A DNA stretch of 64,000 nt from Candidatus Poribacteria bacterium (GCA_965204085.1 CBDBEE010000003.1:1449981-1513980), one strand, 5' to 3'. Positions 16,501 to 50,802 are shown, counted from the stretch's first letter. Notes: generated by a model not told the origin, from the letters alone. Numbers and translations are program-made.

Positions 16501-18030
16501 ATGGCAAGAGAAGTTAGACCCGATGAAGTTTCAAATATACTAAAACAACAATTGCTGCAATTCAATCAACAGGTCGACGTTTACGATTCCGGGACAGTCT
16601 TGGATGTTGGTGACGGAATCGCACGCGTGCATGGGCTTGCCAATGTCATGGCGAGCGAGATGATTGAATTTCCGAACGATGTGTTCGGAATGGCGTTCAA
16701 CCTAGAGGAAGACAACGTCGGTTGTGTGCTTTTCGGTGAAGACAAATTGATTCACGAAGGCGACCTCGCCAAACGGACCAATCGATTGCTCGAGGTTCCC
16801 GTTGGTGAAGGGTTACTCGGGCGGGTCGTCAATGCGCTGGGGCAACCCATCGACGGAAAAGGAGAACTTGGCACTAGTGAGACACTTCCCGTCGAGCGAA
16901 AAGGATTGGGCATTGTCCAGCGTCAGCCTGTCTCCGAGCCGCTGTATACCGGTTTGAAAGCCATTGACAGCATGACAGCTATCGGGCGCGGACAGCGGGA
17001 GTTGATCATCGGTGACCGTCAAACGGGCAAAACCGCCATTCCGATTGACACAATAATCAATCAGAAAAACACCGACGTGTTCTGTATTTACGTAGCGATA
17101 GGTCAGAAGGGATCGACAGTCGCACAGGTTGTTACCACACTCGAGCAGCACGGCGCAATGGACTACACCATCGTTGTCTCGGCGCCTGCCAGTGAGCCGT
17201 CACCTCTCCAATATCTTGCGCCGTATACCGGCACGTCAATGGGAGAATACTTCCGTGACAAGGGGCAGCATGCACTGATTATTTACGATGATCTCACCAA
17301 ACACGCGTGGGCGTATCGGCAAATGTCCCTACTCTCGCGGCGACCGCCGGGGCGAGAAGCCTATCCCGGTGATGTCTTCTACCTGCACTCAAGATTGCTT
17401 GAGCGATCGGCGAAACTCAGTGACGAGTTGGGAGCCGGTTCGCTGACTTCGCTGCCTATCATCGAGATTTTCGAGGGTGATTTGACCACTTACATTCCTA
17501 CCAATGTAATCTCAATCACGGATGGGCAGATTTATCTAACTTCTGAACTGTTCAATCAAGGTGTGCGTCCGGCAATTGATGTCGGTACGTCGGTATCGCG
17601 TGTCGGCGGGGACGCGCAGACAAAAGCCATGAAAGCCGATGAGGTGGCAGGTACGCTCAAGCTGGATCTAGCCAGTTTCCGCGAAGTTGCCGCATTCGCG
17701 CAGTTCGGTTCCGATCTTGACGCATCCACACAATCCCAGCTCCGCCGTGGCGAGCGACTGGTGGAGTTGCTTAAGCAGCCGCAGTATGAACCGATGCCAG
17801 TGGAAAAACAGATAGTCTCAATCTTCTGTGGATCAACGGGATATCTTGACGATATCGAAGTGGCGGATGTGTCGAGATTTGAGACCGAATTCCTTACCTA
17901 CATGGATAGGAATCATGCGGAACTCCTCAAGGAAATCGCCGAAACTGGCGTTTTGAGCGATGAACTTATTGATGGTCTTCATGAGGCGGTGAAAAGTTTC
18001 AAGGGGCGGTTCAAGGTGAATGAGGCATAG
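16501..18030 (+). CDS. atpA: F0F1 ATP synthase subunit alpha.
   Basis: P-loop [18 protein letters not shown] and conserved alpha-subunit sequence throughout. Confidence 0.95.
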
Positions 18031-18040
18031 AGGTGACGAA

Positions 18041-18244
18041 GTGAAACTAAAAATCATTCTCCACGAAGCGGAAGAGGGTGGATATTGGGCAGAAGTGCCC
18101 TCAATTAAGGGATGTGTGAGTCAAGGTGAGACGCTTGACGACTTGATTGAGAACATCTCTGAGGCAATAGAAGGTTGTTTATCTGTGGATATCAGTGATT
18201 GCGATGTCGGCGAGAAAGACACAGTCATGGAGATAGCCGTTTGA
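18041..18244 (+). CDS. hicB: HicB-family antitoxin (UPF0150-like).
   Basis: KLKIILHEAEEGGYWAEVPSIKGCVSQGETLDDLIENISEAIEGCL matches the HicB N-domain pattern. GTG start. Stop overlaps the hicA TTG start (gtTTGAaat). Confidence 0.65.
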   Translation: MKLKIILHEAEEGGYWAEVPSIKGCVSQGETLDDLIENISEAIEGCLSVDISDCDVGEKDTVMEIAV

Positions 18245-18447
18245 AATCCCTGACGGGAAAAGAGTTTTGCCGTTTATTGAATAGGAAAGGTTGGGAATTG
18301 AAGCGAATCAAGGGCAGTCATTACATTTTCGCCAAGGATGCACCTTCTGCCCGAATCTCGGTTCCCGTTCACGGGAATAAAACTCTCAAGCAAGGCTTGC
18401 AGCGGCATCTCATGAAAATAGCGGGTATTGATGAAAGTGAATTGTAG
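18241..18447 (+). CDS. hicA: HicA-family mRNA interferase toxin.
   Basis: LKSLTGKEFCRLLNRKGWELKRIKGSHYIFAKD...VPVHGNKTLKQGLQRHLMKIAGI is the YcfA/HicA pattern. TTG start at 18241. Confidence 0.65.
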   Translation: MKSLTGKEFCRLLNRKGWELKRIKGSHYIFAKDAPSARISVPVHGNKTLKQGLQRHLMKIAGIDESEL

Positions 18448-18468
18448 CAGGGAGTTCAGGAGTTTATA

Positions 18469-19335
18469 ATGGCGACATTAAGAGAAATTAGACGCCGTAT
18501 CGCAAGTGTCGAGAATATCAAGCAAGTAACAGAAGCGATGCGGGTGGTTGCAGCCGCAAGGCTGCGCCGCGCTCAAGAAAATATCTTGGCGACACGACCG
18601 TTCGCGGAAAAGTTCAACGCAATTTTAAGCCACTTGATTGCACAGATTGAAAATCCGACCCATCCGTTGTTGGAAAATCGGGATTTAAAGAATGTGTGTC
18701 TCATTTCTATCAGCGCCGATCGGGGGTTGTGTGGAAGTTTTAACAGCAATGTGATTCGCTCAACAGTGGAAAGGGCGCAGCATTATCAGGATGGCGGCGC
18801 TGCCGTAAAAATCATCTGTGTAGGCAGACGCACTCGAGATTATTTTGTGCGGCGAGACTATGACGTCATTGCGGAATACGTCAACATATTTCGAGATCTT
18901 AAGTTTGAATCGGCGGTTGACATTGTTCATGAGTTTGAGCATCTTTATACTGAACTGCAGATTGACAAAGTAGAGGTGATTTACAACAATTTCAAGTCTG
19001 CCATCCTGCAAACAGTTCTCGTCGAACAGTTGTTGCCGCTTTCTCCTGAAGCTCCAACGGGTGACGAACTCTTTCTCGACTATCTGTATGAGCCGGGACA
19101 GGAGGAAATCTTCCAGTCCGTATTGGCGAAACACCTGAATATGCAGATGTGGAAGGTTCTACTGGATTCCAACGCGGCGGAGCAGGCAGCGCGGATGGCA
19201 GCCATGGAAAACGCGACACGTAATGCCACGGATCTCATTGACGAACTGATTTTACAGCGCAACCGCGCGCGACAAACCCAGATTACAACGGAAATCTCCG
19301 AAATTGTGAGTGGCGCAGCGGCATTGGAGGGTTAG
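18469..19335 (+). CDS. atpG: F0F1 ATP synthase subunit gamma.
   Basis: MATLREIRRRIASVENIKQVTEAMRVVAAARLRRAQE is the canonical gamma N-terminus. Confidence 0.9.
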   Translation: MATLREIRRRIASVENIKQVTEAMRVVAAARLRRAQENILATRPFAEKFNAILSHLIAQIENPTHPLLENRDLKNVCLISISADRGLCGSFNSNVIRSTVERAQHYQDGGAAVKIICVGRRTRDYFVRRDYDVIAEYVNIFRDLKFESAVDIVHEFEHLYTELQIDKVEVIYNNFKSAILQTVLVEQLLPLSPEAPTGDELFLDYLYEPGQEEIFQSVLAKHLNMQMWKVLLDSNAAEQAARMAAMENATRNATDLIDELILQRNRARQTQITTEISEIVSGAAALEG

Positions 19336-19345
19336 AATTTTAGTT

Positions 19346-20218
19346 GTGTTGAGAAATCTTATCAATTCTTCCATTGTTGTATTGTTCTTGACGGGTGGGT
19401 GTTTGTCCGCATTCGGTCATGGAGAAGCATCCACTCTGTTGGAGGATGTCAACAACGATGGTGTGGTGAATATTTTAGACTTGGTTATGGTGGCGAACGC
19501 CTTTGGGCAACCTGTCGATCGACATTCCGAGCAAAATCCGGATGTGAATCGTGACGGCACCGTTAATGTGTTGGACCTTGTTCGAATTGCCAGCCGCATG
19601 GGCGAAACCGCGGGAATCGATAACTCAACTTATCACGATATTCAGGACTATGTATTCAATAAGAGTTGTGCAACGAGTTACTGTCACGCAGCGCCGACAA
19701 ATGCCGGCAATCTGAATCTCACAAACAGGATTTCGTACCACGATTTAGTGGGGCGTGTACCGCAGAACCTCGCTGCGGCATCGGCGGGGATGAAGTTGGT
19801 TGATCCGGGCAACCCGGACAACAGTTTTCTTTTGACAAAACTCGTAGGACCAACATCTGCGGCACAGGGGGGACGCATGCCTTTGGCTGCTGGACCGCTG
19901 CACAGTGGGAAAATAGATGCAATCCGAAAGTGGATTGCCGCTGGGGCATCTCAGACTGATAAACTTCCTGGCGTCGGCGATCTCAGCGTGTTGCGCGATC
20001 CGCTCGAGACCTTTGAGCCACCTCCGGCGCCGCTGCCTGGTGAAGGTTATCAGCTCCGTTTACCACCCTTTATCATTGAACCCGGCACGGAGTTGGAAGT
20101 CTTTTACTCTAGACAGATTACCGACGCAACTGGACAACCGTTGCAGGAGGATATCTTCGTCAATACGTACGAATTGTGTATCCTACGGGCAGCTACCACT
20201 TCATACTGTATCGGATAA
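19346..20218 (+). CDS. Secreted protein with dockerin-like repeats and a PSCyt1-like domain, plus the start of a copper type II ascorbate-dependent monooxygenase (PHM/DBH-like) domain. Probably the 5' part of a frameshifted gene.
   Basis: Signal peptide. DVNNDGVVNILDLV and DVNRDGTVNVLDLV repeats. C..CH-like CATSYCHAAP...SFLLTKLVGP...MP...IRKWIAAGA resembles PSCyt1. Tail PPFIIEPGTELEVFYSRQ...EDIFVNTYEL resembles the PHM N-domain start. Reading frame ends at 20218. Confidence 0.5.
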   Translation: MLRNLINSSIVVLFLTGGCLSAFGHGEASTLLEDVNNDGVVNILDLVMVANAFGQPVDRHSEQNPDVNRDGTVNVLDLVRIASRMGETAGIDNSTYHDIQDYVFNKSCATSYCHAAPTNAGNLNLTNRISYHDLVGRVPQNLAAASAGMKLVDPGNPDNSFLLTKLVGPTSAAQGGRMPLAAGPLHSGKIDAIRKWIAAGASQTDKLPGVGDLSVLRDPLETFEPPPAPLPGEGYQLRLPPFIIEPGTELEVFYSRQITDATGQPLQEDIFVNTYELCILRAATTSYCIG

Positions 20219-20961
20219 CTGAAAAAGGGATAGAGGATGATATACTCAGCGTCGGAGTGACACCGGGGGTCGGGGTAAATCCCGAAGACTCTTTCCGAGT
20301 ATTAGATCCTGCGAATCCACAAGCACTCGGCAACTTTGGAAAGCATCGCGTCTACATCACGGGCACACAGACGAGCGGGAAGACGGTTTATCAATTTCCC
20401 GATGGTGTGGCTCTTCGGCTCGCAGGGGACACCATTTACGACCTGAACGCCCATTTCGTGAATTTGTTAGGTACCGAAGCGATAGAGGGAGAGGTCTACG
20501 TCAATTTCTACACCATTCCGCCAGAGGAGGTCAAGCACGAGGCAGTGGAGATTTTCTCCGCCAACACCGACCTGTTCGTTCCACCAGGAACGACGCGCGT
20601 GGCGATGAAAACCGAAACCGTAGAGGAGGAGATTGAGCGGCGCGGCTACGATCCGAACACCGTGTTGAATCTCCTTATGATTACGTCTCATATGCACCGG
20701 CACGGCGAGTTGTTTGAGATTTTTCAGATGTCGACAGGGAGTTTGCTGCATCGAAGCGTGGCTTACGACGATGCGCCAATCACGGTGTTCAATCCGCCGC
20801 TGGTGCTTGGTACAGACGATGGGATGACCTATGAATGCACGCATAATAATTACGATCGGGATGTTCCACTTACTTTCGGATTCACGTCCGAGGATGAGAT
20901 GGCTATAATCATGGGGTATTACTATCCCACAACTGAAAGTGTTGATGTCGCAAGTGAGTGA
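20176..20961 (+). CDS. PHM/DBH-like copper monooxygenase catalytic region. Probably the 3' part of the same frameshifted gene.
   Basis: H8, H93, H172-x-H174 (TSHMHRHG) and M242/246 have spacing like the PHM CuH/CuM ligands. GTG-initiated ORF with no signal peptide, in the -1 frame relative to the upstream ORF, overlapping it by 43 nt. Confidence 0.5.
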   Translation: MYPTGSYHFILYRITEKGIEDDILSVGVTPGVGVNPEDSFRVLDPANPQALGNFGKHRVYITGTQTSGKTVYQFPDGVALRLAGDTIYDLNAHFVNLLGTEAIEGEVYVNFYTIPPEEVKHEAVEIFSANTDLFVPPGTTRVAMKTETVEEEIERRGYDPNTVLNLLMITSHMHRHGELFEIFQMSTGSLLHRSVAYDDAPITVFNPPLVLGTDDGMTYECTHNNYDRDVPLTFGFTSEDEMAIIMGYYYPTTESVDVASE

Positions 20962-21040
20962 GAGGATGAATTTGAGAATTGCGATCTCAAAGCGTCCCAT
21001 GGGCAAGTTACCCAAACCACGAATTAGAGGAGGATTACCA

Positions 21041-21862
21041 ATGGTATTTGGACTAAGAGGAACACTTATCGTTACTTTGATAGCAATGATTGCTTTATGC
21101 GGCTGTGAGGAGGCCACAAATTTATTGGCAGGCGCGTTGTCGCCCGAGAATCAGGTGGTAGATCCGATTCCGGTTGAAGTAATGACTATGGAGGATACGC
21201 CAACAGAACCTATAATGGATCCCGTAGAAGTGGCAGCGATACCGGTCAAAATGGTGTGGCTAATCAACTATCCGCTGGGCGGAAAGGAGGATTATGTCGC
21301 ATATATCGCGTCCGTAGCGCCTGTGTTGCTTGCTCCGGAAGAGCTTAATCGGGCTGCATCCTACGACAATGTTGACGGTTCCAATCCGCACCGCCTTGTT
21401 GAGTACGAATTTGACAGTTTTGCCGATTTGGCGCACTATCTGAACCGTCCTGAGATCGCGGCAGTCGCTGCCGATTTGCCAAACTACACCAGTAGCGCGA
21501 GTACGCATATATTTATTCAGCGCGGCGATTATTCAAAGAACGAGAGCACCAGCCGGCAGGTTAAAACCGTCTACTTGGTTGACTATCCGCTTGGAGGAAA
21601 AACTGAGTATCTGGAATGGATTGCTTCTATAGCGCCGATGCTACAAGCCCCCGAAGAGGTAAAGCGGATAGCATCCTATGACAACTATTATGGAGTGTCC
21701 CCGCATCGGTATGTAGAATTCGAGTTTGATAGCTACGAAGAGGCGAATACGTACCAAGAACTCCCGTACGTACAGCAGCATGTTAATGCGGAGCTACCTA
21801 ATCGAACCAGCCGCACGTCTGTCCTAACCTTTGAGTTGCGATCTGATTACATCAACGAATAG
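21041..21862 (+). CDS. Lipoprotein of unknown function built from two tandem paralogous domains of about 100 aa.
   Basis: ATG at 21041 after AGAGGAGG. Signal with LIAMIALCGC. Repeat 1 VWLINYPLGGKEDYVAYIASVAPVLLAPEELNRAASYDN...EYEFDSF and repeat 2 VYLVDYPLGGKTEYLEWIASIAPMLQAPEEVKRIASYDN...EFEFDSY. Confidence 0.5.
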   Translation: MVFGLRGTLIVTLIAMIALCGCEEATNLLAGALSPENQVVDPIPVEVMTMEDTPTEPIMDPVEVAAIPVKMVWLINYPLGGKEDYVAYIASVAPVLLAPEELNRAASYDNVDGSNPHRLVEYEFDSFADLAHYLNRPEIAAVAADLPNYTSSASTHIFIQRGDYSKNESTSRQVKTVYLVDYPLGGKTEYLEWIASIAPMLQAPEEVKRIASYDNYYGVSPHRYVEFEFDSYEEANTYQELPYVQQHVNAELPNRTSRTSVLTFELRSDYINE

Positions 21863-21935
21863 TCGGGTATATACTCTACGCTGTTGGACGTTGCGTTTTT
21901 AAGAGTCAAGAAATGGAGCATGAGTTTTGCCGGCG

Positions 21936-21985
21936 GTAGGAGGGAATTCCGATTCCCGACCGTCGCGATTCGGAGATCGCTCCTA
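21936..21985. repeat. REP-like palindromic element, family 1 doublet.
   Basis: GTAGGAGGGAATTCCGATTCCCGAC CGTCGCGATTCGGAGATCGCTCCTAC. 5' GTAG and terminal CTAC, hairpin-forming. Nearly identical copy at 36139-36193. Confidence 0.55.
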
Positions 21986-22170
21986 CAAACCTTCGGTGCA
22001 CAATTGCGCAGAATTAACCGGTGCTAAGTATAGGTGTCTTGATGACAGTTTCGCCCTTCTCTCTAATGATGCGAGTTGGGTTAAGAATGGACGGAAATTG
22101 CAGATTTGGAAGCTAGTCTCCGCTGAAAAGGAATGCATGCGGATCTGGATGAAACGATTGGATTCTGAGC

Positions 22171-22563
22171 ATGACAAAGCCCATCATCATAGATCAGGAA
22201 GTGCTATCGTGGGAGGGGTGGGAAGATGCGGAAGTCGCTGCCAAGAGCGCGATACGTTGGAAGATTCTAATTTCCAGCGAGCGAGGTCCAAGCGCAGGGC
22301 TAGTTACCGGTTTGGCGGAGTTTCCAGTCGGCACTCGACTGCCACTTCATCACCACGAACCTCCGGAGACCTATTACATCGTCAGTGGGCGGGGCAACAT
22401 GGTAATTGACGGTCATGAATCAGACATCGGACCGGGGTCTACAGTCTACATCCCGTCTAATGCCAAACACGCTGTATGGTGCACCGGAAATGAGCCGTTG
22501 GTTTTCGTGTTTTCCTTTGCGTGCGATCGATTCGACGAGATTGTCTACCACTTCGACGAGTAG
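22171..22563 (+). CDS. Cupin-domain protein.
   Basis: LPLHHHEPPETYYIVSGRGNMVIDGHE...GSTVYIPSNAKHAVWCTG has the two cupin motifs G(X)5HXH and G(X)5PXG...H. Confidence 0.65.
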   Translation: MTKPIIIDQEVLSWEGWEDAEVAAKSAIRWKILISSERGPSAGLVTGLAEFPVGTRLPLHHHEPPETYYIVSGRGNMVIDGHESDIGPGSTVYIPSNAKHAVWCTGNEPLVFVFSFACDRFDEIVYHFDE

Positions 22564-22597
22564 TCGGATTGTGAAGGGGGCTATTTAAAGAAACATA

Positions 22598-23071
22598 ATG
22601 CCCTACGATGTCGAAAAACAGATTCAGGAGGCGATGGAACGGGGCGACTTCGAGAAGTTGCCCGGCAAGGGGAAACGGCAGGAGTTGAAAGTAAACCCGT
22701 TTGTTCCGAGTGAAACCCGCATAGTCAACCAGATGCTCAAAGACAACGGATTTGCACCGAATTGGATTGAGGTAGACAAAGAAATTCGTGCCGAGTGCGA
22801 ACAATCCAGAAAGATGCTGGGGAACATCAAACGGCGCCGCCGACAGCTAGAAGCAGCGATTCGTGCCCAACCACTCAAAAGCGACAGGGTACGTCGGGGT
22901 TTTGAACTTGAGCGAAAACGGGCGCTAGAGACATACATAAGCCAACTGAAAGGGCTTAATCAAAAGATTCTCAGATATAATCTTACAGCGCCAGGGCGCA
23001 GTAGACAGAAGTCTATGTACAACCTTGATGACACGATAGCTCAATTTCAGAAGGAGTACCCGAGCCTTTAG
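22598..23071 (+). CDS. DUF1992 (DnaJC28-like) domain protein.
   Basis: IQEAMERGDFEKLPGKGKRQELKVNPFVP...MLKDNGFAPNWIE matches the conserved DUF1992 N-terminal pattern. Confidence 0.55.
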   Translation: MPYDVEKQIQEAMERGDFEKLPGKGKRQELKVNPFVPSETRIVNQMLKDNGFAPNWIEVDKEIRAECEQSRKMLGNIKRRRRQLEAAIRAQPLKSDRVRRGFELERKRALETYISQLKGLNQKILRYNLTAPGRSRQKSMYNLDDTIAQFQKEYPSL

Positions 23072-23133
23072 AGTTTGTTCGAGTGATAGATGAAAAAGCC
23101 GTTTTTGGACATTTGAGGCTATTACTTGTGGGA

Positions 23134-23180
23134 TCTCTATCGCATTCGCTATTGGTGGTTTGATGGTCACTAGCGCTTTG
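23134..23180. repeat. Family 2 interspersed repeat.
   Basis: cttgtgggatctctatcgcattcgctattggtggtttgatggtcac, at the right edge of the accessory island before atpD. Confidence 0.5.
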
Positions 23181-23294
23181 AAAGGCTGGTGTGCAATGCG
23201 CACCCTACGAGTCTAGCGTCCATTTCCGCAAGAAGTACCCTAGTAGTAAAAGGATAGATAAGTCAGAACTAGAAATGATATGTACGATTTTTAG

Positions 23295-24719
<1,425 letters not shown>

Positions 24720-24795
24720 GCCAGACAAGAGCCATAGGAGGCGGCGCTTAACATCAACAGCCGAAAACGCAATATTTTTTATCTAGTGAATAGCC

Positions 24796-25203
24796 ATGCT
24801 TGAAAGAAGATTCCACCTCGAAATCCGAACACCGCAACAACTTATCTATGAAGGCGACGTGAGCAGTGTCAGGGCACCCGGCGAACTCGGATCATTTGAA
24901 ATCTTTCCGGGCCACATTCCTTTTTTAACGGTTCTGGAAACGGGTGAGGTTCGTATCCGGGAAACCGATACACCTCAGTCATTGGCAATCAGCGGCGGGG
25001 TTTTTGAAGTGTTGCGGACAGGGGTCACCGTGTTGTCCGACACGGCGGAATGGGCGCACGAGATAGATGTAGAACGTGCCGAGACGGCTCGTCAACGCGC
25101 TCAGGAACATCTGGCATCGGGAGATTCCGAGATTAACCGAGAACGCGCAGAAGCCGCATTAGTCCGCGCCACGAATCGGATAAAAGTCGCAACTTCCTTG
25201 TAG
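24796..25203 (+). CDS. atpC: F0F1 ATP synthase subunit epsilon.
   Basis: 135 aa. LEIRTPQQLIYEGDVSSVRAPGELGSFEIFPGHIPFLTVLETGEVRI is an epsilon beta-sandwich. Confidence 0.85.
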   Translation: MLERRFHLEIRTPQQLIYEGDVSSVRAPGELGSFEIFPGHIPFLTVLETGEVRIRETDTPQSLAISGGVFEVLRTGVTVLSDTAEWAHEIDVERAETARQRAQEHLASGDSEINRERAEAALVRATNRIKVATSL

Positions 25204-31845: not shown

Positions 31846-32094
31846 CTAAGACAATGCGTGCAAATCCCGCTGGCGTTCCTCCCAATCTGGCAGATAGGCG
31901 TGCATGAAACTCCGAAACAGCCTACCGTGATTCGGGGCGAGGAGATGCACCAACTCATGCACAATCACAAACTCCCCCAACGCCATCGGCAGGTCGAGCA
32001 ACTCCGTGCTCAGGGTCAACCGTCCGTTTGTGGATATGGATGCCCACTTTCGACGCATGTCCCGCAGGTGAACTTCGCGCACCGTTACGTCCAT
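31846..32094 (-). pseudogene. C-terminal fragment of a YgjP/DUF45-family zinc metallopeptidase (type I RM-associated).
   Basis: RKWASISTNGRLTLSTELLDLPMALGEFVIVHELVHLLAPNHGRLF...LPDWEERQRDL contains the HExxH motif and the SprT/YgjP-like tail. The N-terminal two thirds of the family are missing. Confidence 0.55.
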
Positions 32095-32551
32095 GCGCTC
32101 CGCCCAGTCGGACGCCGCGCAAGGGCGGATTCATGCGAGCAACCTCACGCATGGCTTCCGTGACGAACTCACCCAAACCGCCGTTTGCCGGATGGTTGCG
32201 GAGTTGCTTCCAACTGTACTTTTGCGGGATATAGAAACGCACAATCGAGCCGCGTTCAGACTTGTGCGCGTCTTCGTGGTCGGCTTCGATAATGTCTCGC
32301 GCCGTTTCTTCATCACCAAATTCGGCAACGCGTTCGGCAAATTCATCATCGAACACATCGGAGAGGCGTTTGTAGAAGATTAACGGCAGGATGAAATCCT
32401 TGAATTTTGGGGCGTCGGTCGCTCCGCGAATCACGCAGACGGCATCCCACAGCCAAGTCTCCAGCGTTGAGATGTCCAATTCTTCTTGTTCTGGCGTTGG
32501 AAATTCAATGTCTGTCTGGGGTGGGGCGGAGGTGGGTTGAGGTTTTGACAA
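31955..32551 (-). pseudogene. hsdM: N-terminal fragment of type I restriction-modification methyltransferase HsdM.
   Basis: LETWLWDAVCVIRGATDAPKFKDFILPLIFYKRLSDVFDDEF...VRFYIPQKYSWKQLRN...GLGEFVTEAMREVARMNPPLRGV matches the HsdM N-terminal domain. Homology ends about 145 aa in. No methyltransferase catalytic domain follows. Confidence 0.6.
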
Positions 32552-45312: not shown

Positions 45313-45753
45313 CTAACAAATACATCGAAGATATTTTTTGTTCTTCGGTGGTTGTACTTCCAGACGGGCTTCGGCGACGTACAACGGCATAAACTTCACT
45401 TTGTACTTGTGGTGTTGTCCGTACCACGCGCGTTTAAGCAACGACCAGAACCCTTCGAGTGTGTTGGTATGGATTTCGCCATCCACAAATCTTTCTGAAT
45501 GATTGACACTCTTGCGTTTTATGAACCTTTCCAGGCTCTTGTAAACGTTATTTTCGTCCGCCATGAGCGTTGACCCGCCCGTGTCCACTCTGGAAAGTAT
45601 AAAACTCAATGCCTCTCCCACCGTCACGCTACTTACCGCCTTGCCAACAACCTTCCCGCCACGCTCTACTGCTCCGATCGCCGGGGTTTTCTTGGACCGA
45701 TTCTTCTCCGGATTGTGCGTGTCATCATCATCTGGAGTGTTCGGCAACAGCAA
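45313..45753 (-). mobile_element. IS1595-family (ISXO2-like) transposase C-terminal fragment.
   Basis: MADENNVYKSLERFIKRKSVNHSERFVDGEIHTNTLEGFWSLLKRAWYGQHHKYKVKFMPLYVAEARL matches the C-terminal DDE_Tnp_IS1595 region. N-terminal zinc-ribbon and DDE core are absent. Confidence 0.6.
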
Positions 45754-47053: not shown

Positions 47054-50000
47054 TCATCGAATAATGGCAAACCTGCTTATTTTGTTCCCGATGACCGCAT
47101 TCGATTCATCACGCGCCTCTACGTGGTAGATGTAGACGCCGCTGGCAAGTGCCTGATTGTTGTAACTGAGTAGGTCGAAAGATTCGGTGCCGCCCTTGTC
47201 GCCCTGTGCCAACCGCTCCTCCGCATCGTAGGGTGAGGTGTGTTCGTGTTCAATTTCTCGCACCAACTCGCCAGCCATGGTATAGATTCGCACCGTGCAT
47301 TTCGGCGGAAGGTGGGTAAAGAAGATTTTATCCGTTCCCTCGGAAATCACTGCTCTGTTCGTCACGAAGTAGGGATTCGGCACGATGCGGATTCGATCCA
47401 GATCGGCGCGAATGTCGTCTGCGATGAGCGTCTCGCCGCCGGTGTTGAGCACCAGCTCGTCGCCGTCCTGAGGGGCGCCAATCCCTCCCATTTTGACAGT
47501 GAATACATCCCCGGCAGAGATTTCAGCATTTGGATCTCTGATGAAAACGTACCCACCCCGTATGAAGATCCGAAAGAAGCCGGGGGTATTGGCCGGGTTA
47601 TATTCATCGCTCCAACCTGTGCCTGTGAAAATCGCATAGCCATCCGCACGCTCGCCTTTGAATTGAATTTCCTCACCGGTATCTTCATCCACCACTTTGA
47701 CATGTGTATCGTCAACAAAGGTTATCGAGTAGGTATGTGGACGGTAGTAGGTTGACCACCAGATGTTGGTCCAGGTGTTCTCCCCAACCCCGGGAGACTG
47801 AATGTCCACATTCCAATCTGTGACCGTGCCCTTGGTCAACGTTACACCTTCGATTGGGTTTTCGTTTGGATGCCCGTAGGTCACGTCAACCCCCTTTATC
47901 TTCAGGGTGATTCCATCAAACATCGGGGAAAGCGCTTCAACAGCCGCAATTTGCGTTGGGTCGTACCAACCGAAGGACTGTTTTTCCACAACCGTCTGAT
48001 TCGTGGTCATGTCAATGATTTCATAGGCGGGCGGCTGATAACCGGGGCCAGTGATATATGCATCAGCATCTATCGGTTTAGCACCATACCAAACCATTTT
48101 GTATTGATGTCCGGTGACATTCTTGGGGGCGATAATCATTGGCTCGACGGTGACGCTTCCAGTGCGCACAAAGGCGTTGTCCGCTAGCTCAGCAGTGGCA
48201 TCACGGTGCCCTGCGGGGCTCGCACGCGGCGTCACGTGAACCATCGTCTCGATCTGGCTGCTCTCCATCGCGATAAGCCCGGTCTTGGGATTGCCGGTGT
48301 CGTACGATGTGACGGCGTAGGTGTATTGAATCCCGTTCGTCAATCCTTCATCGGTATAGAAGGTCTTTATGCCCGCGTCCTCGCCGAGCGCTTGTGAAGG
48401 CGTGGAAACGATGCGGAAGATGTCGCCAGCCACAGGGGGACCCGAGGGACCATCCGAAATCTGCACATACAATCCGCCGAAGTAGATAAGCGATCCGGAA
48501 CGATACTCCCCATCGGGATAAACTTCGCCAGTATTGGGATTCATAACGACGTATCCACCGCCATCTGCCGGGAACTGAGGGTTAAGCGCCATCACTTCCC
48601 ACAGCGTTGTATTGATTATCTCATAGGTGGTGCTAGAATCGAACTTGATGACGTAGACGGCATTTTTGAAGAAATCGGCAAAGAATGGTTCGTCGCCTAT
48701 GGCGGCAATGGTGGCGTCCGACTGTTTACCGACGTGTGACACCGTGAGAAAGTTGCCGGTTGCGCTGGGTTTGTCAAACTCCGTCAGCATGACCCAATCC
48801 TGCACCGGGTCGCCGGTAGATTCGTCGTACGAAGTATCCCGTCTGTAGACTCTATAACCTTCGAAAACCTTCTCCGGGTCGGTAATGTCAACATATTCCT
48901 CAATGCTTTTCTTGACTCCTTCGTGAACCCATCCTTCGGCACTTTCCCATACGAGCGTCACCTGTCCATCGGCGGGATACGCCGCAACTTTCGGCGACGG
49001 CGGCGGTGCGGGTGCGACGTAGTCATCGTCATACAGTTTCTGCGCCCAGTCCGATGATGCTTGCAGCCCTTCAAGCCCTTCACCGATCGCCACTGCCGTG
49101 ATGACATTGAATACCTGCCCCGGCGCAAGCGACTCTATGGGGCCATAGGACTGAATGAAACGTTGGTCGTCGTAGTTTGCGGGAAGCGGATCGACACCGG
49201 GGACACTAATCAAGGCGTACATCTCGGCGGCGGTCGATGGATCGGTGGAAATTGTAATCCGTTTGTGCGCTGCGAACGGAATCTTGGCGTTAGCGTCCTG
49301 GGGGTTATCGCCAACGTAGGCATCCAAGACACGTAAGCCGACGAAGCCGGTAGACGAGGCGTTGGAATACCCGTAAGAGAGGTAGCGGTTCGGGTGGGCG
49401 TCGGGATTGAGGGCGTCGGGAGTTTCATCCAACGCAACGAAATCATCAGCGGAGTAATTCGCCGTTCCGGTTTCACTGCTGGAGACATCCACGTCGTATC
49501 GGAACGCCATGAATACATCTTCCAAGGTATCTCTGCCGACGTTGGTGACTTTGTACTCCAAGATGAAGAAATCGTAGAGCGGCGCGTAACTCCATTGGAA
49601 ACCGTTGACCTCGATTTCCAATCCAAGAATCAACTCGCGATTCGCCTCCGGGTTGGTGTCGGTGCATTTGAACCAGATTGATTGGCCGGTTGGTGTTCCC
49701 TTTGTCGTCATCCCCGGTTTGTTTGAAATGACCTCCGGCGAATCGTCGGTGGGCCAAATCTCGGACTGCCGTCCATCGGAGAAGGAGACGCCGACCTCTC
49801 CGCCCTTCTTGGCGCCGATCCAGATATCTCCTTCGTAGATATAGGAGTCGTTCGTCCCGGCGGGCCACCATCCGGATGGGTTTTGGGTCGGGCTGGTCGG
49901 GTAACCGACGACCGCGGTGTTGTAGACGGCGGAGGTTAGATTGCCGACATCAAGCGCCTTCCAATCTACGCCCCCCATTGCAGGCAGACTGGCTATGAGA

Positions 50001-50068
50001 AGAAGTGAGGACATTAGCAGCGACAGCGGGCGGAGGTTCGGATATCTATCCGGATTCTCAGGATTCAT
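47054..50068 (-). CDS. Large secreted protein (about 1000 aa) with a T9SS C-terminal sorting domain. Function unknown.
   Basis: Signal peptide from MNPENPDRYPNLRPLSLLMSSLLLIASLPA. C-terminus ...LASGVYIYHVEARDESNAVIGNKISRFAIIR has the T9SS CTD pattern. ORF-track start 50212 is probably too early. Confidence 0.55.
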   Translation of the reverse strand: MNPENPDRYPNLRPLSLLMSSLLLIASLPAMGGVDWKALDVGNLTSAVYNTAVVGYPTSPTQNPSGWWPAGTNDSYIYEGDIWIGAKKGGEVGVSFSDGRQSEIWPTDDSPEVISNKPGMTTKGTPTGQSIWFKCTDTNPEANRELILGLEIEVNGFQWSYAPLYDFFILEYKVTNVGRDTLEDVFMAFRYDVDVSSSETGTANYSADDFVALDETPDALNPDAHPNRYLSYGYSNASSTGFVGLRVLDAYVGDNPQDANAKIPFAAHKRITISTDPSTAAEMYALISVPGVDPLPANYDDQRFIQSYGPIESLAPGQVFNVITAVAIGEGLEGLQASSDWAQKLYDDDYVAPAPPPSPKVAAYPADGQVTLVWESAEGWVHEGVKKSIEEYVDITDPEKVFEGYRVYRRDTSYDESTGDPVQDWVMLTEFDKPSATGNFLTVSHVGKQSDATIAAIGDEPFFADFFKNAVYVIKFDSSTTYEIINTTLWEVMALNPQFPADGGGYVVMNPNTGEVYPDGEYRSGSLIYFGGLYVQISDGPSGPPVAGDIFRIVSTPSQALGEDAGIKTFYTDEGLTNGIQYTYAVTSYDTGNPKTGLIAMESSQIETMVHVTPRASPAGHRDATAELADNAFVRTGSVTVEPMIIAPKNVTGHQYKMVWYGAKPIDADAYITGPGYQPPAYEIIDMTTNQTVVEKQSFGWYDPTQIAAVEALSPMFDGITLKIKGVDVTYGHPNENPIEGVTLTKGTVTDWNVDIQSPGVGENTWTNIWWSTYYRPHTYSITFVDDTHVKVVDEDTGEEIQFKGERADGYAIFTGTGWSDEYNPANTPGFFRIFIRGGYVFIRDPNAEISAGDVFTVKMGGIGAPQDGDELVLNTGGETLIADDIRADLDRIRIVPNPYFVTNRAVISEGTDKIFFTHLPPKCTVRIYTMAGELVREIEHEHTSPYDAEERLAQGDKGGTESFDLLSYNNQALASGVYIYHVEARDESNAVIGNKISRFAIIR

Positions 50069-50159
50069 AATGCGTCCATATAGGCTCAAGTTTTTCCTCA
50101 AAACTCGGTTTCTCAAAGTCACTTTGCACCTTCTTTTGACATGAGCCTGATGTTGTTTG

Positions 50160-50531
50160 TCATGCGGTTTGCAACTGGTATGGTTGAACCAAGATATCTG
50201 CGGAGATGCCAAGTCCTTCGTGCAAATTCCGAATCATGTCGAGAGTCAAAGCGCGTTGCCGATTCAAGACTTCTGACACATAGGATTGGGAGCCCAAGTA
50301 GGGTTCAAGATCGTGACGAGACAACCCTTGACTCTCCATGTGGTGAAGGATAGTCTCAACCGGATCTGGCGGCGGTACGGGGTAATGCTCCTGTTCGTAT
50401 GCCTCAACCAAGGTGACCAGTACATCGAGTTTATCCCCCTCTGGCGAACCGTGAGGTGCTTCCCAGAAGCGTTGAATCTCTCGCAACGCGGCTTCATAGT
50501 CTGATTCGGTTTTTATCGGTTTAATATCCAT
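50160..50531 (-). CDS. HigA-family (COG5499-like) HTH antitoxin. No HigB partner seen.
   Basis: MDIKPIKTESDYEAALREIQRFWEAPHGSPEGDKLDVLVTLVEAYEQEHYP...LSRHDLEPYLGSQSYVSEVLNRQRALTLDMIRNLHEGLGI is the HigA pattern. ATG at 50531. Confidence 0.55.
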   Translation of the reverse strand: MDIKPIKTESDYEAALREIQRFWEAPHGSPEGDKLDVLVTLVEAYEQEHYPVPPPDPVETILHHMESQGLSRHDLEPYLGSQSYVSEVLNRQRALTLDMIRNLHEGLGISADILVQPYQLQTA

Positions 50532-50580
50532 GGTTATCACATTAAAATCACGCCGCATAGATTTTATCATGTACTTGGCG

Positions 50581-50802
50581 CTAAGACGACTGTTCCTGTT
50601 GTAGGTACGACCATGCGGTATCCTCTTCCGGACGATTCCAGTCTTCAGCGAGCGCGGCTTCGCTGAGCCATGCAGTTTCAGAAAAATCTCGCTCATCGGT
50701 GAGAATCGTCACAACGGCTCGTCGTGGTTCTGACAATTGGATTGGCTCTAGCAATCGCACGTTACCTTGTTCATCAATTGTAGCTTCAATGGTTTGTTGC
50801 AT
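50581..50802 (-). CDS. DUF104-like (AF2212-type) putative antitoxin with a C-terminal acidic EDW tail.
   Basis: MQQTIEATIDEQGNVRLLEPIQLSEPRRAVVTIL matches the DUF104 style. Tail LAEDWNRPEEDTAW resembles the tail of the 53481-53750 protein. Confidence 0.4.
   Translation of the reverse strand: MQQTIEATIDEQGNVRLLEPIQLSEPRRAVVTILTDERDFSETAWLSEAALAEDWNRPEEDTAWSYLQQEQSS

Follow-up and report, generated by a model that had tools for sequence, protein, structure and literature searches.

Positions 19,346–20,961 of the stretch analysed here, 64,000 nucleotides of DNA from a Candidatus Poribacteria bacterium (GCA_965204085.1, CBDBEE010000003.1:1449981-1513980; called the window and numbered from its first letter), hold two overlapping open reading frames (ORFs) that sequence comparison shows to be a single gene of this strain. 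The gene specifies a protein with a two-domain copper core like those of peptidylglycine alpha-hydroxylating monooxygenase (PHM, the animal peptide-amidating enzyme) and dopamine beta-hydroxylase (DBH). The frame shift is caused by a missing G between 20172 and 20173, after residue 276, and a second change, found only in the window, replaces an invariant histidine ligand of the CuH copper site by tyrosine. Judged from its sequence the gene is dead as written, through the frameshift and the loss of this ligand together, and it should be annotated as one disrupted gene and not as two proteins. The gene pieces, the two lesions and the copper core are placed as follows:

19346–20218, + strand: 5' gene piece (ORF1), which codes for the signal peptide, the dockerin and the cytochrome-like domain and for ~50 residues at the start of the PHM-like N-domain
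20173–20961, + strand: 3' gene piece in frame 1, which completes the PHM-like N-domain and supplies the C-domain in full; the mechanically called ORF2 begins at GTG 20176
20172–20173, + strand: 1-nt deletion, giving CGA ATT where relatives have CGA G ATT; L001, L002, L003, L004 and L005 all retain the G
20161–20176, + strand: near-perfect palindrome CAATACGTACGAATTG, 16 nt with 7 of 8 pairs, created by the deletion
20194–20196, + strand: Tyr codon TAC, which is CAC (His284) in all relatives; window-only C>T at 20194
20027–20937, + strand: PHM/DBH-like two-domain copper monooxygenase core, interrupted at 20172/20173, as recognised by Foldseek, profile comparison and Cu2_monoox_C
Ligand codons, + strand, from the PHM alignment: Y284 at 20194, H285 at 20197, H370 at 20452, H449 at 20689, H451 at 20695 and M519 at 20899

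ORF1 (19346–20218, + strand) is read in frame 2 and ORF2 (20176–20961, + strand) in frame 1, shifted by -1 from that of ORF1; the two overlap by 43 nt. The frame-2 ORF is open from 19310, and its start is taken as GTG 19346, the start also used in orthologues, with GGAGG 14 nt upstream. The two ORFs, on the same strand, have atpG (18469–19335) before them and a gene for a 273-residue protein (21041–21862) after them. Past 20172/20173, ORF1 continues for 14 residues unlike those of the orthologues (LCILRAATTSYCIG) and then stops. The exact sequence of its 290-residue product is recorded as P0121, from a contig of 2,063,690 bp, and the product of ORF2 is on record as P0122, with 261 residues, from the same contig.

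When the intact 538-residue orthologue P0001 was compared with the window by tblastn, its residues 1–278 aligned in frame 2 and the remainder, onward to residue 538, in frame 1. A trial protein made by joining both pieces was used as a database query and returned more than 500 proteins, mostly from Candidatus Poribacteria, to which the few named proteins among them also belong. These relatives are single ORFs with a typical length of ~537 residues; the best 120 have mostly 520–565 residues, with 62–98% identity and 95–100% query coverage. The 90%-identity cluster that contains P0121 and P0122 has 25 members; 11 of the 15 listed are full-length, each with 538 residues, and among the members listed only P0121 and P0122 have the split form. 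A preliminary description of this DNA had proposed a single gene split by a frameshift, with the catalytic core continuing in the -1 frame from 20176, and had suggested that orthologues be examined for an intact single ORF. The tblastn alignment, the cluster members and the more than 500 relatives bear out the split gene, the frames of the two ORFs are as it described, and every full-length orthologue examined is a single ORF.

The position of the deletion was established by DNA comparison with three close intact relatives, namely L001/L002 (a single sample, represented by its ENA and Logan assemblies, with 97% identity to the window), L003 (OZ244829.1, a 6.15-Mb Poribacteria metagenome-assembled chromosome) and L004/L005 (98.3% identical to the window and having, as in the window, hicB between atpA and atpG). 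In the alignment of L001–L005 the relatives read TACGAGATTGTG...CAGCCACCAC where the window reads TACGA-ATTGTG...CAGCTACCAC; in wider context the relatives have AATACGTACGAGATTGTGTATCC and the window AATACGTACGA-ATTGTGTATCC. Aligned to L001, L003, L004 and L005, the junction contains a sole gap of 1 nt with identical flanks, and the sequence downstream of it, ATTGTGTATCC with the TG run, is the same in the window and all close relatives. Over 19 kb aligned to L001, this is the one uncompensated coding indel, the others being intergenic or compensating pairs. A search for the same frameshift elsewhere found only the intact form, in OZ244829.1; an exact 32-mer of the broken form had no match in genome_contigs, and neither the broken nor the intact form was present in the JGI metagenome_contigs. 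Gene conversion from a donor within the window was considered and rejected, each of the two mutated 12-mers occurring there only once.

In the relatives the site of the palindrome at 20161–20176 is a 17-nt quasi-palindrome in which the now-missing G is the bulged base. Template-switch correction of quasi-palindromes is a known in-vivo mutation route, and the context of the deletion points to such a correction, not to repeat slippage. Only 8 of the 1617 possible 1-nt deletions in the gene (0.5%) would produce a palindrome of this kind. Because this test was chosen after the data had been seen, it is a lead and not proof.

The second lesion, C>T at 20194, lies 21 nt downstream of the deletion and changes His284 to Tyr. 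His284 is the first histidine of the SHHF motif, shows no variation across 118 Poribacteria sequences or across 61 representatives of the family at 26–61% identity, and in a profile alignment corresponds to H107 of PHM, in the CuH site. Substitutions unique to the window number 13 in this gene, and H284Y is the exception among them, the other 12 being synonymous. The preliminary description had pointed to H, H, HxH and M ligand spacing; this spacing holds for the family and fails in the window, where the first pair is Y-H, a change at the copper site that the description had missed. Six of the synonymous differences (20421, 20424, 20427, 20436, 20469 and 20475) fall within 55 bp at 20421–20475, a cluster that looks as though a more divergent allele had contributed a short tract by recombination, the gene being otherwise ~1% different.

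The assignment of the copper core rests on structure and profile comparisons. An AlphaFold2 model was built on P0001, an intact orthologue 98% identical to the window gene, with 118 homologues, and has mostly high pLDDT over residues ~225–530. In a Foldseek comparison of this model with the PDB, PHM entries rank first, with E values of 6e-14 to 5e-11 and target-normalised TM scores of 0.6–0.65 (for 1phm and 3mll, E ~1e-13 and 0.63–0.65 over ~320 columns), and DBH has E 4e-12. The family profile matches PHM across both domains with E 1e-10 and DBH with E 5e-9; this required the profile, a single-sequence search against the PDB giving only a marginal DBH match (E 0.58). The profile alignment equates SHHF with H107/H108 of PHM, NSHY with H172, SHxH with H242/H244 and DEM with M314. 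Of the CuH ligands, H284, H285 and H370 are invariant in the family, and the window copy fails at Y284. The CuM ligands are present in the window, in SHMHRHG (CAT 20689, CAC 20695) and EDEMA (ATG 20899); in the family H449 and H451 are invariant and M519 is at least 90% conserved. On ORF2, Cu2_monoox_C (PF03712) scores 35.7 bits against a cutoff of 23 (E 8e-9), and it matches 31 of the 61 family representatives. Since the Foldseek and PHM profile alignments extend over both domains, the PHM-like N-domain spans the junction, as had been proposed. The profile checks suggested at the outset were positive for Cu2_monoox_C and dockerin and negative for Cu2_monooxygen and PSCyt1.

Because the lesions are unique, the other 12 of the 13 substitutions silent and the uncompensated indel the only one in 19 kb, the damage is either very recent or artefactual. 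We consider the chances about even that it is a real, very recent and strain-specific loss of function in the organism, and we infer that it is present in the DNA and not only in the consensus. In favour of this are the second, independent inactivating change at an invariant ligand and the presence of other gene remnants in the window, an ORF with HsdM_N only and a fragment of an IS1595 transposase. Ordinary bacterial frameshift pseudogenes and quasi-palindrome mutations likewise have, in one strain, a single-base indel that removes the asymmetry of a short inverted repeat, and in such pseudogenes, as in the window gene, a second inactivating change accompanies the indel; unlike them, the window gene has no signs of relaxed selection elsewhere along its length. 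Several points count against a real loss. The split is seen in one assembly only; the predominance of synonymous changes indicates that selection has not been relaxed in the lineage, so that the lesion would need to have arisen extremely recently; a local consensus error would likewise leave a pair of unique lesions, 21 nt apart, in clean surroundings; and the palindrome statistic was, as noted, selected post hoc.

The strongest alternative, to which we give a probability somewhat short of even, is an error of consensus or assembly. The organism would then have an intact 538-residue gene, and the missing G, perhaps with the C>T, would have arisen in the metagenome consensus, for example in a low-coverage or mixed-strain stretch. 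That both lesions occur on one contig only, the listed full-length cluster members and the three DNA relatives being intact, agrees with such an error, as do the closeness of the lesions, the purifying selection up to the present that the 12 synonymous changes imply, and the 2.06-Mb length of the source contig, which presumably comes from a long-read metagenome assembly. However, the rest of the 19 kb compared shows zero other uncompensated coding indels, and the assembly is therefore otherwise clean. Moreover, the deletion lies outside any homopolymer, the usual place of consensus indels, and bears the signature of in-vivo quasi-palindrome mutation. A chimera of mixed strains is no explanation either, since the T at 20194 is found in none of the related strains.

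Very improbable, by comparison, is a programmed -1 ribosomal frameshift or a pair of working genes, one for a secreted dockerin-cytochrome protein and the other for a cytoplasmic copper domain. The 43-nt overlap and the GTG of ORF2 at 20176 would fit either arrangement, and stand-alone proteins with the cytochrome-like domain exist in the database (two-stretch matches of 260–360 residues). However, no slippery heptamer of the form X XXY YYZ was found on reading the shared open region 20112–20218, and the split is absent from every full-length orthologue examined; programmed frameshifting is therefore rejected. Nor does ORF2 resemble a working gene: it lacks both a signal peptide and the first three beta-strands of the N-domain (residues 234–277 in the structure model), no Shine-Dalgarno sequence resembling GGAGG can be seen immediately before GTG 20176, and one of its copper ligands is replaced by Tyr. 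The 290-residue product of ORF1, for its part, would retain the signal peptide, dockerin and cytochrome-like domain only. Least credible of all is the mechanism first suggested, slippage within the ttgtgt run (20174–20179) that inserted the 2 bp TG: the run is where it was said to be, a (TG)2 repeat at the junction, and frame arithmetic permits the event, +2 being equivalent to -1, but two TG units are not slippage-prone, with TG taken out the protein would read ...YELYPTG..., a residue short of all the orthologues and without the nearly invariant Ile277 and its neighbour (orthologues read ...YE-I-[V/A/F]-YPxG..., where Y279 and P280 never vary and E276 and I277 hardly do), and the alignment to L001, L003, L004 and L005 requires one 1-nt gap upstream of the run, so that slippage is refuted by the DNA of the five loci.

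The part of the protein that precedes the copper core comprises three elements:

19346–19420, + strand: predicted signal peptide MLRNLINSSIVVLFLTGGCLSAFG|HG, from the sequence; G24 and H25 hardly vary within the Poribacteria clade
19442–19594, + strand: type I dockerin, Pfam Dockerin_1, E 9.7e-13, 48.6 bits against a cutoff of 22.9
19622–19960, + strand: c-type-cytochrome-like domain, with C108-x4-C113-H114 at 19667–19687 and M178-P179 at 19877–19882

The signal peptide suggests that the protein is exported. With the predicted signal-peptidase site at 19415–19420 (..SAFG|HG..) and the near invariance of G24-H25, the mature protein would begin with His. In enzymes of the LPMO type a His at the N terminus coordinates copper; an LPMO-like role for the one here would be pure speculation. 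The dockerin match (PF00404) corresponds to residues 45–95 of the ORF counted from 19310 and includes two calcium-binding EF-hand-like repeats, DVNNDGVVNILD and DVNRDGTVNVLD; the dockerin-like repeats of the preliminary description thus score above the Pfam cutoff. The window has a second dockerin-bearing ORF at 11–1603 (530 residues), the dockerin of which, at 938–1132, is 43% identical to that of the PHM-like gene.

The non-canonical C-x4-CH motif described from the window (codons TGT 19667, TGT 19682 and CAC 19685) is real and invariant across the family. C108, C113, H114 and P179 are invariant and M178 is at least 90% conserved in the 61 representatives, and in the 118 Poribacteria sequences the motif shows no variation either; the conserved Met-Pro lies 64 residues further on. 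Some multiheme cytochromes are known to have CX4CH heme sites. Residues ~93–205 have weak matches to the C-terminal heme domain of TIGR03806 (E 5.5e-5 for P0001 and 1.6e-7 for P0182), to the heme domain of hydrazine synthase alpha (5c2v_A, E 0.0016), to FoxE, to cytochrome c6 and to the heme-motif region of CTI. The domain had been called PSCyt1-like, a name that does not hold: PSCyt1 (PF07635) scores 14.0 bits on ORF1 against a cutoff of 22 (E 0.079), below the Pfam gathering score, and has no match on the intact P0001 at E ≤ 0.1. In Planctomycetota relatives a genuine PSCyt1 occurs as an additional domain elsewhere in the protein (residues 50–99 of P0182), and the domain in the window is therefore not PSCyt1 itself. 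It shares with bacterial c-type cytochrome domains (TIGR03806, PSCyt1, hydrazine synthase alpha and FoxE) the Cys...Cys-His arrangement and a downstream Met-Pro and differs from them in having C-x4-CH instead of the canonical C-x2-CH. From these features the domain may bind heme.

An exhaustive HMMER scan with P0001 matched 6700 representatives of 50%-identity clusters at E ≤ 1e-3, 986 at ≤ 1e-10 and 107 at ≤ 1e-30. Many of these matches have 430–460 residues and consist of the cytochrome-like domain and the PHM-like core without a dockerin, and the combination of dockerin and core occurs in more than 500 clusters at 90% identity. The domain combination had been described as uncommon in bacteria, which these cluster counts reveal to be an overstatement. 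T9SS sorting domains are joined to the core in 19 of the 61 representatives, and other modules joined to it are dockerin, PKD/Big, FG-GAP and cadherin-like domains, with an extra PSCyt1 in Planctomycetota. The source names among the proteins listed are 'hypothetical protein', 'dockerin type I domain-containing protein', 'c-type cytochrome domain-containing protein' and 'mono/diheme cytochrome c family protein', and a literature search turned up no paper about this family, about PHM-like or cytochrome-fused enzymes of bacteria, or about the dockerins of Poribacteria. Given the many clusters, the generic names and the lack of literature found, the architecture is not rare but uncharacterised.

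The family has the two beta-sandwich-domain fold and the six copper ligands (HH, H, HxH, M) of PHM, the catalytic core of PAM (1PHM, 3MLL, 1SDW). It differs in being bacterial, in its low identity to PHM (13–17%), in the added N-terminal dockerin and heme-c-like domain and in an N-domain that is not recognised by Pfam Cu2_monooxygen; ascorbate, moreover, is an unlikely reductant outside the bacterial cell. The window copy departs further, with Tyr at the H107 position and the frameshift. With DBH, tyramine beta-monooxygenase and MOXD1 (4ZEL) the family shares the same copper core and an accessory N-terminal domain before it, but the accessory domain in DBH is DOMON whereas here it is the C-x4-CH cytochrome-c-like domain, and the family has a dockerin and no dimerisation domain.

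A working scheme may be drawn from these comparisons. The intact gene would give an exported protein of ~538 residues with signal peptide, type I dockerin, cytochrome-like domain and two-copper core, presumably held at the cell surface by the calcium-dependent dockerin. The heme domain would replace ascorbate as one-electron donor to CuH (HH...H), and electrons would pass from CuH to CuM (HxH...M), where O2 would be activated and a C-H bond of an extracellular substrate hydroxylated; we infer this route, heme to CuH to CuM, from the domain and ligand assignments. In the strain of the window, the loss of the G by a quasi-palindrome template switch, together with the C>T at 20194, would have cost it the enzyme. 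Taken as a whole, it is a tentative and rather doubtful proposal that the family constitutes a class, so far undescribed, of bacterial copper monooxygenases of the PHM/DBH type that work outside the cell, with a fused heme-c donor and interchangeable surface anchors (dockerin in Poribacteria, dockerin together with PSCyt1 in Planctomycetota, and T9SS in 19 of the 61 representatives), carrying out hydroxylation or amidation of host peptides or amines in sponge symbionts, and that the window strain has just lost the enzyme by a quasi-palindrome-templated deletion. Two results speak against the working scheme: the cytochrome-like domain is modelled at low confidence, with pLDDT <50 over much of residues 91–219, and Cu2_monooxygen (PF01082), the Pfam model of the N-domain, had no match at E ≤ 0.01 among the family members scanned.

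Within the species the PHM-like gene sits between atpG and atpD in the atp operon, and in more distant Poribacteria it is found elsewhere; a conserved neighbourhood was consequently set aside as a clue to the substrate, the location of the gene differing among Poribacteria. The F1 part of the operon, at 16501–25203, is interrupted twice, the order being atpA, hicB (18020–18244), hicA (18199–18447), atpG, the PHM-like gene, a tandem Dabb-like gene (21041–21862), a cupin gene (22171–22563), a DJC28_CD gene (22598–23071), atpD and atpC. In the sister strain L001 a gene for a 23S_rRNA_IVP (four-helix-bundle) protein occupies the slot of hicBA, and the spacer between atpA and atpG is therefore a variable cargo site. 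The gene at 21041–21862, which encodes the 273-residue protein, contains a Dabb/DUF1330-like ferredoxin-fold unit duplicated in tandem (VKMVWLINYPLGGKEDY... and VKTVYLVDYPLGGKTEY...) after a lipoprotein-like N terminus; in this species (L001, L004) it comes next after the PHM-like gene, which is not so in the orthologous loci L006 or L007, and no homologue of it was found beside the L006 orthologue. The gene remnants in the window are a 198-residue ORF at 31955–32551 (- strand) with the HsdM N-terminal domain only, a truncated type I methylase, and a 146-residue fragment of an IS1595-family transposase at 45313–45753 (- strand). A 1052-residue ORF at 47054–50696 (- strand) has no Pfam match at E ≤ 0.01 and is preceded, with a 53-nt overlap, by a 178-residue HTH_3 protein.

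A frameshift in one metagenome-derived assembly is routine, and the main interest lies in the intact family, which is large and unnamed and keeps all the copper ligands of animal PHM and DBH while adding a heme-c-like domain and surface anchors. As a cytochrome-fused, surface-anchored PHM-like family it is a modest lead for enzyme discovery. If active, it would provide a bacterial model, independent of ascorbate, for the non-coupled binuclear copper monooxygenases and would be a candidate for chemistry at the interface of host and symbiont in sponges.

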